Below, one piece after another: positions 43,150 to 54,877 of a stretch of DNA of 64,000 nt. Source of the DNA: Eledone cirrhosa. Its lineage: Eukaryota. Location: the NCBI GenBank assembly GCA_964016885.1, contig OZ024743.1:124434001-124498000 (forward strand), in the 5' to 3' direction. The notes under the pieces were generated by a model that saw only the letters and a list, made by a program, of their open reading frames with translations, searched no databases and was not told the origin of the DNA. Position 1 is the first letter of the stretch. The number at the start of each line of letters is the position of its first letter. The position numbers and the translations under genes were made by a program.

Positions 43150-43934
43150 CGATTCAATAAATAAAGTTCAAGGAGGTATAATCAAATATGCGTATATATC
43201 CATGCGCACCCACGCGTGTTTAATGTGTGTGTATGTACGTATGTATGTATAAAATGTGTGTGTATGTATGTATAAAATGTGTGTATGTACGTATGTATGT
43301 ATAAAATGTGTATGGATGTATGTATAAAATGTGTGTATGTACGTATGTATGTATAAAATGTGTGTGTATGTATGTATAAAATGTGTGTGTATGTACTATG
43401 TATGTATAAAATGTGTGTATGTACGTATGTATGTATAAAATGTGTATGTATGTATAAAATGTGTGTGTATGAATGTATAAAATGTGTGTGTATGTATGTA
43501 TACAATCAGAAATGAAGTGACATTATTTAGGGTGGATTGGCAGTATCGGTAGAGGGTCCGACGCCATGCTTTGCAGTAAAGAGTTACGGCCCTTTATGGT
43601 CTGAGTTCAAATCCCGCCGAGGTTAACTTTGCCTTTCATCCTTACGGGGTCGATAAAATTAAGTACCAGTAATGCACTGGGATAATTGCTGGCCTTGTGC
43701 CAAAAGTAGAAATAATTATTTACGATTTTATACATACATTTTATACATACATTCATACACACATTTTATACAAACATTCATACACACACATTTTATACAT
43801 ACATACGTACATACATTTTATACATACATACACACATTTTATACATACATACACACACATACACACACGCGCGGGTGCGCATGGATATATACACATATTT
43901 GATTATACCTCCTTGAACCTTATTTATTGAATCG
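43150..43934. repeat. Inverted repeat with mirrored GTATGTATAAAATGT minisatellites around a SINE A copy (43530-43720)
   Basis: 43150-43218 matches the reverse complement of 43865-43934. Confidence 0.85.
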
Positions 43935-48668: not shown

Positions 48669-48754
48669 AATAAACGAAGCTAAATTTTAATCATTTGACT
48701 TTTATTTAACTTTATTCTATATAAATATATATATATATATATATATGATAATAA

Positions 48755-48941
48755 TTGTTTCTACATTTGGCACAAGGCCAGCAATAAACCAGTGCATTAC
48801 TGGTACTTTATTTTATCGACCCCGTAAGGATGAAAGGCAAAGTTAACCTCGGCAGGATTTGAACTCAGAATGGAAAGGGCTGTAACTCTTTGCGTCAAAG
48901 CATGGCGTCTGACCCTCTACCGATACTGCCAATCCACCGCC
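48755..48941 (-). mobile_element. SINE family A with TSD
   Basis: ATATATATATGATAATAAT on both sides. Confidence 0.88.
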
Positions 48942-49004
48942 TGATATATATATGATAATAATGATGGCTGCGCGTTGCAAATGGTGGTGCATATGAAAAA
49001 GTAA

Positions 49005-49106
49005 GTCCTTCATCAGTGACCCTCCAACCGTCCCAGGCATTTCATCGCTTTAAGGGCCATATGCCTCAGGTTGGTGCGAACAACGGCTAAAAAAAGTCGT
49101 TGGGAC
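49005..49106 (-). ncRNA. Permuted, pseudoknotted hammerhead-like RNA, copy 3
   Basis: GTCCC-hairpin-TCGCA-CCAACC-TGA-GGCA-TA-TGGCCCT-taaaGCGAt-GAAA-TGCC-TGG-GA-C-GGTTGG-AGGGTCA-CTGATGA-aGGAC. Confidence 0.7.
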
Positions 49107-49131
49107 ACGTAAACAAAGGGGACGCCAGGGT

Positions 49132-49178
<47 letters not shown>

Positions 49179-51721: not shown

Positions 51722-52945
51722 ATATTGATTTCTAATTTAGGCACAAGGCCAACGATTTGTGAAGAAAGGAAATATATTATATCATAACCTCGGTGGAATT
51801 TGAACTCAGAACGTAAAGGGCAGTAACTCCATGTCGCAAAGTATGTTGTCCAACGTTCTACAGCTACTGTCAATTCACCACCCTCAGAGATATTCGTAAT
51901 AATTGTTTCTACATTTGACACAAGGACAGTATTTTGAAGGGAAGGGAAAAGTCGATTAAATGGACTCCAGTACATAACTGGTACTTTATTTTATCGACCC
52001 CCCCCCCCCGTAAGGATGAAAGGCAAAGTTAACGTCGATGGCATTTGAACTCAGAAGGTAAAGGACCGTAACTACAATATATGCCGCAAAACATGTTATC
52101 CGACGTTCTACCGATACTGCCAATCCACCGCCCTAACAGAAATCATAATACCAACCTCAGTACTTTACTGTTACGTTAGTTTATCAACCTCGGAAGGATG
52201 AAAGGTAATGTTGGCCTCAGCGAGATTTGAACTGAAGAAGTAAAGAACCAGAACAAATATTGTAATGACATTTTAAACGACTCTTTACCAGTTTCTAAAT
52301 ATAATTGTTTCTACTTTAGGCACAAGGCCAGCAATTACCCAGTGCATTACTGGTACTTTATTTTATCGACCCCGTAAGGATGAAAGGTAAAGTCAACCTC
52401 GGCGGGATTTGAACTCAGATCGTAAAGGGACGTAACTATGCTGGAAAGCATGGCGTCCGACCCTCTACCGATACTGCCAATCCACCGCCAGTTTCTAAAT
52501 ATAATCAAAGTAAAAAAAGGAATATTCACTTGAGGATAAAATAAGATGACTTTATCCGGGAATTTTCTGAGTTTAGTCATAAAAGTTAGTCATATGAAGA
52601 ATCGCAACGATCAAGAGAAGTAAAGTACGTGGTCCTTAACTCTTGTTGGTATCGTAGGGCCGCCGTCCTGACACACAGCGTATCTTAGGCAATATTTTAA
52701 ACCTGGGGTAACCCATTCCTCGAACATAGCCAATTTTTTTCCAGAGAATGAGAGAGCGAAAAAAGTGATAAAGAGAGATAGAGGAGGGATCGATCCCAAT
52801 ACTAGACTAGTAATTTATTTGTTGGCTTCGAAAAGATGAAAGGCAAAAGTGACTGAGGCGGAATTTGAACTCGGAAAGCTGTACGCCGGAACACATATCG
52901 AGGCTGCTAATCTGACACGCTAACGACTCTGTTAATTCGCCACCT
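51722..52945 (-). mobile_element. Cluster of about 5 SINE family A copies of different ages
   Basis: Repeated family A motifs; 52305-52488 has TSD CCAGTTTCTAAATATAAT. Confidence 0.85.
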
Positions 52946-53624
52946 TACAACCCAGAGACCCAGTGTTTAATTTGGATTTCGACGAAAGACTAGAAAATAT
53001 ATCAATTTTCCACAGAGGGAAATAGGTGAGCCAGTTAGATAGGCTTAAATTTTGAAGGTGGGCTTGCTCCCACTAAATTCTAGTTGATTTATTTTGTTCT
53101 GTTACTTGTAAGTACATCATGATTACTTCATACACATGTATATAAATGTAGCCCCTACATAAATCATGTTTCTGATTGCTAAAATACGTAATGATTAGTT
53201 TGAAATGACATCTACATTTCACACAGGCCATCGGAGTCTACATTTTACATTTGTCCTGAAATTATTTCCAGTTATGCACGGGCCTGAGAACACCACCTTC
53301 CTTCCTCAAAATAATATTATGGAGTTTCGATGAGAAGTTTGCAGAGTGAAGAAAGTGGAAAACACACCGGTTAAAATAAATACTCCCACTTCACCCATGT
53401 CACATTTTATCTCTCGCAGCCTCTTTCTCTCTCTCTTCTCTAGCCTTTGTTTAACATCCCTGTAAATCTACTTGCAGCATTAAACGCAGGTAGCATGAAT
53501 CTAAATAAGGGTGTATATAGATACATCTACCATGTTTATGTATTATAAATATACAATTGTTCGCGATTTATTGACAACACACATAAAGAATTTTACTAGA
53601 GCAACCTCTGCCGAAAGACATAAA

Positions 53625-53813
53625 ATAATTGTTTCTACTTTTGGCACAAGGCCAGCAATTACCCCAGTGCATTACTTGTACTTTATTTTATCGACTCCCT
53701 AAGGATGAAAGGCAGAGTTAACCTCGACGGGATTTGAACTCAGATCGTAAAGGGCCGTAACTCTGTACTGCATAACATGGCATCCGACCCTCTACCGATA
53801 CTGCCAATCCACC
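53625..53813 (-). mobile_element. SINE family A
   Basis: Full-length match to the family. Confidence 0.88.
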
Positions 53814-54641
53814 TGAAGCTTTAACGGATAAAACGAGGACAGATATTTCCTCAAAATTGCAGCAGCAAGAACCCTTGTCATGTTAGACTGAATATACGAG
53901 CTCGTATAATATACTATCGGGTCCTAAATAATAGGAGGTGGGTGGAATAAGCGGGAGGGTTGGAAAACGGTAATTTTTTTAGGTTGTCTCCGTTGATTTA
54001 AAAAAAACCCAGAGTTAGTGTTTTAGTATACATATTGAGACCCCAACCTATCCTATTTATTTTATAACGTATTGGATTTCTAGTAATGTACTTTTTATGT
54101 CATATATAATGTTTTTTTAATGTCTAAAGAAAATTTTCGCGGAGGTGGGGGATCTGAAAAAATTAATAAACTGTGGGGATGATTATTCGAGACCCGAGAA
54201 GAAATACCAATGACGGACGCCGTCTTCTCGCTCTAATTTTATTCATATGTATCCCATTTGCAACAACGCAGCACGCCATTTTTCATTTATATTTTTCCCT
54301 CCGCTGTCTGTTTCTTTCTTACTGCTATCCTCTTTCTCTCCCCCTGTATCTCTCACCTTCATTTCATCCCCTCTGCCAGTCACTCTCTCTCTCAGCTGGC
54401 CTCTTCCTCACACTTTCACCCACTCACTCTCTGCTACTCCCCCTCTCTCACTTCCTCCCGTCTACCTGTGTAAAATACTTTTCTCGCTCACATTTCACAC
54501 GGGCTGGACGTGTCTGTGTCTCTCCTCGTCCATGATTTGATCGAACAGATATCACGGACTTGTTTCCCTTCTTCCTCTCTTTCCGTTGCATTACCATCTC
54601 TATTTGTTTAAATGTATCGCTCGCTTCACCCTATTCTACGT

Positions 54642-54743
54642 GTCCCAATAACTTTTTTAAGTTATTGCTCGCACCAGCCAGAGGTATATGATCTTTAATG
54701 CGAAGAAATACCATTGACGGCTGGAAGATCACTGATGACGGCC
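54642..54743 (+). ncRNA. Permuted, pseudoknotted hammerhead-like RNA, copy 2
   Basis: GTCCC-hairpin-TCGCA-CCAGCC-AGA-GGTA-TA-TGATCTT-taaTGCGAa-GAAA-TACC-ATT-GA-C-GGCTGG-AAGATCA-CTGATGA-cGGCC. Confidence 0.7.
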
Positions 54744-54811
54744 GCCCTGTCTTCTCGCTCTAATTTTATTCATATGTATCCCATTTGCAACAACGCAGCA
54801 CGCCATTTTCC

Positions 54812-54877
<66 letters not shown>

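Follow-up and report, generated by a model that had tools for sequence, protein, structure and literature searches.

The window (the whole 64,000-nt stretch analysed here, 31% GC and rich in (TA)n) contains a non-coding repeat that has the insertion anatomy of Penelope-like elements (PLEs) and that is, judged from its sequence, quite probably a non-autonomous, retrozyme-like descendant of a Naiad 3′ end; a pseudoknotted hammerhead within it is predicted to cut after position 54688. As an element, the carrier is of an expected kind, a PLE-dependent retrozyme-like repeat; what is new is the topology of its ribozyme and the tie of that ribozyme to Naiads. The repeat, its surroundings and its relatives in the window comprise:

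54198–54292, + strand: upstream partial copy of the unit's 3′ end (corresponding to 54702–54819), from self-comparison
54293–54819, + strand: full family A unit, non-coding, period 527 bp, from self-comparison and related loci
54293–54641, + strand: CT-rich body of the family A unit, seen in the sequence and 83–90% alike in 30 other loci
54780–54819, + strand: 40-nt PLE-type 'tail' between two recurrent 3′ ends (54779 and 54819)
54820–54874, no strand: (TA)n target microsatellite, seen in the sequence
9342–9802, + strand: 5′-truncated monomer of sister family B, predicted cut after 9685, from comparison with the full family B unit
48945–49135, − strand: 5′-truncated copy of the young sister family C, predicted cut at 49060, from the fold descriptor and family search

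An earlier note on this DNA had described a partial repeat of the unit's 3′ end with a deletion between two TGACGG words, and this repeat is real: 54198–54216 equals 54702–54720 and 54222–54292 equals 54749–54819, with a repeat period of 527 bp. The 21 nt between TGACGG at 54715–54720 and TGACGG at 54736–54741 are gone from the upstream copy, a deletion that removes its CUGAUGA block, and a further 2–3 nt are lost just past it. The CT-rich body, the hammerhead-like core and the (TA)n run are likewise visible in the sequence as first described, and the cleavage then predicted after 54688 is right by hammerhead numbering. ORFs in the family A unit are of low complexity only (46–118 aa), with none for RT plus GIY-YIG endonuclease, nor was such an ORF joined to any copy examined; a tRNA search of the unit found none, and the unit has no inverted self-match except TA and no TIR. 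A copy at 9180–9800, to which the same layout had been attributed, proved to be a family B monomer, 72% identical to the window's family A copy, in which homology to the full family B unit begins at 9342, directly after a (TA)n run, and which has no partial upstream repeat. The third, younger copy (approximately 48945–49135, − strand) had not been listed. Many copies of another, dispersed repeat of approximately 190 bp, 85–93% alike, also occur in the window (53623–53813, 9929–10120, 13536–13726, 43531–43721, 48751–48941, 52301–52489 and others), which we take to be SINE-like.

The hammerhead blocks of the family A unit lie in the order S-G-C (S 54683–54695, G 54699–54712, C 54725–54738), and the predicted fold is built from the following parts:

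54642–54667, + strand: P4 5′ strand (54642–54645) and hairpin P5 (54646–54652 with 54661–54667), extra helices closing the split C block
54669–54679, + strand: stem II 5′ strand (54669–54673, pairing with 54699–54703), then a strand of the helix bridging stems I and II (54674–54679, pairing with 54719–54724)
54683–54695, + strand: block S, with stem III strand, AUA triplet, predicted cleavage after A54688 and stem I strand, by hammerhead numbering
54699–54712, + strand: block G, with stem II 3′ strand, GAAA (54705–54708) and stem III strand
54719–54743, + strand: bridging-helix strand, stem I strand, CUGAUGA core (54732–54738) and P4 3′ strand (54740–54743)

Bases 3′ of CUGAUGA pair with 54642–54645, forming P4, rather than with the bases 5′ of GAAA. 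P4 is followed by hairpin P5, the true stem II strand (54669–54673), one base and the bridging-helix strand, such that the stem II strand lies upstream of the core, held by the two extra helices P4 and P5 in a four-way junction. The whole is predicted to be a pseudoknotted hammerhead that self-cleaves after 54688. In the window copy P4 has a mismatch at 54742 (C where family A has A), and this family A ribozyme copy is probably old and weakened.

Five families in the host genome, A–E, share the fold. The hammerhead core (CUGANGA, GAAA and UH) is present, and H is never G in family-typical copies. A descriptor of the fold matched three copies in the window and nothing in 100 shuffled windows; at the match it was satisfied by 19, 27, 30, 10 and 13 of 30 loci from families A to E respectively (99/150 in total), and in 0 of these 99 did a stem II directly follow CUGANGA. 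Rfam hammerhead models gave no hit to the unit at the gathering score and none at E≤5, as would be expected from the permuted topology. Single-sequence folding, which cannot display pseudoknots, gave z of about −1 to −2. The cleavage-site base (54688) was observed as A or C in related contigs of runs X1–X3, all from one sample; both are allowed for hammerheads.

Covariation was measured in an alignment (A2) of ten copies picked for diversity, drawn from outside family E and omitting loci L084 and L180 (a row with an indel). Here 95.8% of cells pair and 17/33 pairs are changed on both sides, values that refer to a structure read from these same sequences; 0/500 shuffles reached either value, and slid registers pair at 24–51%. 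Each of the six helices has at least one double change, those of stem II and P4 coming from family D alone, with 5/6 pairs changed on both sides in stem I and 2/5 in stem III. Column 38–64 is unpaired in 6/10 rows. The 10.1/11.1 pair beside the core is non-Watson–Crick in families A and D and G–C in family E and Naiad_Ovul; family E, inspected by eye, has an unbroken four-way junction together with this G–C pair.

What the earlier note called a new fold is new in its permuted topology, with the stem II strand upstream, but it is a relative of the published type-SGC hammerhead and not a new ribozyme class. With type-SGC (HRIMA-1; Eckert et al. 2023, PMC10085705) it shares the S-G-C order, a 3-nt linker between stem I and stem II, a helix bridging these stems and two pseudoknots, as well as the module 'stem II – 1 nt – bridging strand' of SGC-1, recognised by eye from the published oligos (PMC10085705). 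The two differ in that stem II of type-SGC comes straight after CUGAnGA, whereas in the unit its strand lies upstream, tethered by P4 and hairpin P5. In SGC-1, as rebuilt by eye from those oligos, CUGAUGA leads into stem II, after which come one G and the bridging strand (PMC10085705); the unit's ribozyme therefore reads, at the level of sequence, as the SGC circle opened between CUGAUGA and stem II. The CUGAnGA–stem II junction was assumed to be obligatory by Eckert et al. (2023), and the published SGC forms come from metatranscriptomes, none from the genome of a known organism (PMC10085705).

The 3.0-Gb host genome assembly gave 3084, 1264, 1220, 3576 and 744 first-look candidates for families A to E, of which 40 were scored per family, so that the figures do not give the number of copies. 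In ~466 kb of sequence retrieved for unrelated purposes there were 11 loci with a copy (5 in 206 kb, with the selected L061–L062 excluded, 4 in 100 kb and 2 in 160 kb), which suggests a genome-wide copy number of, roughly, tens of thousands, the sampled sites being transposon-rich. Unit lengths in families A–E are ~520–790 bp; the copies are for the most part truncated monomers or partial dimers. Family A copies are 88–95% alike. Family C is young, as 12/40 scored matches (of 1220 candidates) are 100% identical, the query being among the 12.

Several local arrangements were also seen. A family E locus (host genome C3:110376856–110377694; L238, L240) contains an inverted copy and approximately five head-to-tail 95-bp repeats of the ribozyme 3′ half. 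At host genome C2:343586000–343598500 (L061–L062) a four-fold 3.3-kb tandem duplication, 97–99% identical, has a family B copy and a LINE fragment inside it; these family B copies, spaced by 3.3 kb, had been considered as full-length PLEs and were rejected as local tandem duplication. Another tandem repeat family of approximately 500 bp, with a CTGATGA core and GAAA upstream, occurs at L133 (~7980, 8490 and 8980, + strand) and L137.

Insertions have recurrent 3′ ends and variable 5′ ends. The aligned family A segments, 104 in all and taken from 60 loci, end most often at 54819 (61 segments), next at 54778–54779 (17) and otherwise at scattered points, and families C and D likewise have two 3′ ends ~40–46 nt apart. 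Of 30 family A loci selected on the body, nine have an inverted 5′ piece (seven long, two short), and TA lies at the 5′ side in 23 and at the 3′ side in 20. The inverted pieces are 5′-truncated copies of the unit's 3′ end, of variable length, and not fixed TIRs. TSD-like words were found in 7/30 loci, variable in length and mostly TA-rich, one being of 18 nt. Fixed TIRs and a fixed-length TSD, which the earlier note had named as marks of a DNA transposon, were sought in the unit and the 30 loci, and neither was found. Of 29 upstream partial copies, 23 begin 3′ of the predicted cut (14 nt beyond it in the window), 6 run across it and none begins exactly at 54689; such start sites fit cleaved templates or RT stalling at the fold and are proof of neither.

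The insertion anatomy is that of PLEs, with partial tandems, inverted 5′-truncated pieces, a 40-nt tail and a microsatellite target. Partial tandems, inverted 5′-truncated copies, a 30–40 bp tail and a (TA)n bias are described for PLEs and Naiads (PMC8557442), and the PLE tail has been described as the distance between two RT start sites, both target strands being cut and extended (PMC11167929). The fixed 3′ ends 40 nt apart, together with the tandems, inverted pieces and (TA)n flanks, bear out the earlier reading of the repeat as a non-autonomous PLE-type, retrozyme-like retroelement with a permuted hammerhead.

The ancestry of the ribozyme points to Naiads, which have been reported to be without a canonical hammerhead, some being flagged 'HHR_core' or 'HHR_half_core' (Craig et al. 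2021, PMC8557442). The 3′ ends of 53 published Naiad consensi (PMC8557442) were read by eye over ~280 nt each, some deeper, the end of Naiad_Cmel lying outside. The split S-G-C fold with P4 was recognised in seven of the 53 (Obim, Ovul, Amil, Aacu, Anas, Movir-2 and Plae), and Bfor and Esco probably carry it too; six nematode ends (Nbra-1, Nbra-2, Nbra-3, Hcon, Hpol and Asuum) are clean type CSG, again by eye. No permuted core was seen in 38/53 consensi, mostly within the last ~280 nt only, which is not to be read as absence. Many bivalve and hemichordate 3′ ends in the same set share, by eye, another conserved motif that is not a hammerhead. By eye, the Naiad_Obim and Naiad_Ovul ends have the same six helices as the unit and short linker and loop sequences in common with families A and B; the distance from core to 3′ end is ~85 nt in these two and 81 nt in the window unit. 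Judged by this likeness to published octopus Naiad ends alone, the host is probably an octopus. Naiads, especially these two, also share with the unit (TA)n targets, a 30–40 bp tail and partial tandem and inverted structure, and differ in that they encode EN-RT whereas the unit encodes nothing (PMC8557442). The unit is likely descended from a Naiad 3′ end.

A mechanism that we regard as probable, in view of this anatomy, would begin with transcription of tandem copies. The ribozyme would adopt a circularly permuted form of the type-SGC/CSG pseudoknot, in which the break falls between CUGAUGA and stem II and the closure is provided by P4 with hairpin P5; it would cut the tandem RNA to unit-length pieces, which might circularise. 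A PLE protein (GIY-YIG endonuclease and RT), acting in trans, would then nick (TA)n and prime reverse transcription at one or the other of two positions separated by 40 nt, using a single target strand or both, which would account for the tailed and untailed ends and for the inverted 5′ pieces. A cycle of this kind would parallel that of retrozymes (PMC7229834; bioRxiv 10.64898/2026.07.22.740005). The 21-nt deletion may represent a jump of RT between the TGACGG words, across the folded ribozyme.

The earlier note had also proposed a search for tandem arrays and an autonomous partner; partial tandems were found, but no autonomous element with the same 3′ end in the host genome. Short-motif searches and one seed family recovered no Naiad whose 3′ end matches families A–E. 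One motif had 0 matches, one a single match at control level (a degraded remnant) and one 10 matches, against 0 in the control, all decayed; the Naiads found are decayed only, 69–87% alike and without an ORF, and the Naiad_Ovul ribozyme sequence is absent from the host genome. Twenty further Naiad remnants had no link to families A–E. Nine of these have, in the 3′ UTR, a degraded S-G-C-order hammerhead-like motif with a U3–A8 core (UUGAUAA), without a stem II assignment (L323:3515–3684, + strand; also L309, L311, L313, L315–L318 and L321), which is not the parent of families A–E. No Naiad motif was found in family E flanks (1.5 kb).

A GIY-YIG search of the host genome, in which 150 of 10596 candidates were scored and 30 loci plus 20 wider stretches were read, recovered PLEs with a C-terminal endonuclease, mostly Neptune-type. 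None among the loci read had an S-G-C ribozyme at its ends, copies of the unit near these PLEs look like independent insertions, and no joined PLE ORF was found upstream of 17 family C and 15 family D stretches. Two long, apparently recent Neptune-type ORFs lie beside (TA)n, at L123:4309–7122 (− strand, 938 aa stop to stop) and L125:1775–5062 (+ strand, 1096 aa stop to stop), and their PLEs are candidate trans-acting partners. In one Neptune-type family (L126, L127, L131, L136 and L139) CTGAAGA...GAAA was observed in the 3′ repeat, ~350–410 nt past the ORF stop, with the look of a minimal type I hammerhead; CTGANGA was not seen in that 3′ region of any further Neptune family examined.

For the same element and fold, a present-day mobiliser among active Neptune or Hydra PLEs, in place of a Naiad, is a serious possibility, if short of an even one; this reading overlaps the preferred one and departs from it in the partner alone. 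Naiad ancestry of the ribozyme says nothing on the current partner, and near-identical Neptune-type copies with long ORFs (those of 938 and 1096 aa, with RT, CxxC linker and GIY-YIG) are often beside (TA)n; the Naiads found are decayed, cephalopod Naiads have been called remnants (PMC8557442), and young family C needs a present-day mobiliser. Against this, Neptune 3′ regions share neither sequence nor SGC fold with the unit, and a young Naiad could have escaped searches that relied on short motifs and a single seed family.

It is unlikely that the structure has been kept for protein binding or for the initiation of reverse transcription, or as a ribozyme that works with the help of protein, the naked RNA not self-cleaving efficiently. 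The hammerhead of an Anolis PLE requires protein for cleavage, insertion does not depend on it and no RNA-seq ends mapped to it (PMC11167929), and metazoan PLE hammerheads are slow and of low activity (PMC4209133), data that count against a processing role for the unit's ribozyme; the non-canonical 10.1/11.1 pair of families A and D and the read-through copies across the predicted cut point the same way. On the other side, the catalytic core is kept in five families and across animal phyla, and published SGC relatives cleave at 0.007–0.19 per min (PMC10085705). That the unit is a MITE, some other kind of DNA transposon or a satellite and resembles a hammerhead by chance, a view that would suit its non-coding nature, high copy number and inverted segments, is highly improbable given 5′ truncation with fixed 3′ ends, variable inverted pieces that derive from the unit's own 3′ end, TSD-like words of variable length in few loci, a unit without inverted self-match except TA, and the absence of descriptor matches in shuffled windows.

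The preferred reading, a retrozyme-like descendant of a Naiad 3′ end, places the unit beside two known kinds of element. Like non-LTR retrozymes (Cervera and de la Pena 2020, PMC7229834; bioRxiv 10.64898/2026.07.22.740005), which have been proposed to be PLE-derived and PLE-mobilised (same sources), families A–E have tandem non-coding units with one ribozyme each; retrozymes, however, have type I hammerheads and units of ~170–400 nt, in place of the split S-G-C pseudoknotted ribozyme and units of ~520–790 bp found here. Chlamys elements such as MRC1 (PMC8557442) are likewise non-autonomous PLE derivatives with pLTRs and head-to-tail copies; the unit differs from MRC1, which is algal, has no reported hammerhead and has 3′ ends matched to autonomous partners (PMC8557442). 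The literature searched, which included PMC13725137 and lay outside most subscription papers and the supplements of bioRxiv 10.64898/2026.07.22.740005, contained no description of a split C block, nor of a permuted hammerhead, whether in Naiads, in octopus or in another animal retroelement.

We favour, with some reserve, a wider proposition: that active, non-circularly permuted hammerheads are a feature of Naiads across animal phyla and of the non-autonomous elements derived from them. Those of nematodes would be of type CSG; those of corals, box jellyfish, an acanthocephalan and octopuses would be the pseudoknotted circle opened at a fourth point, with a four-way junction separating the CUGAUGA block from stem II. 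Non-circularly permuted hammerheads are known so far from anonymous metatranscriptome and metagenome contigs and one doubtful bacterial case. If the proposition is true, they would have here their first genomic home in animals, in tens of thousands of copies, and the view that Naiads lack hammerheads would be overturned; the assumption of the three-block model that CUGAnGA and stem II are inseparable would be broken by a four-way junction in an animal retroelement, and the split fold would account for the 'HHR half-cores' of Naiads in Craig 2021. As standard descriptors and Rfam miss the split fold, surveys of animal ribozymes and retrozymes probably undercount them.
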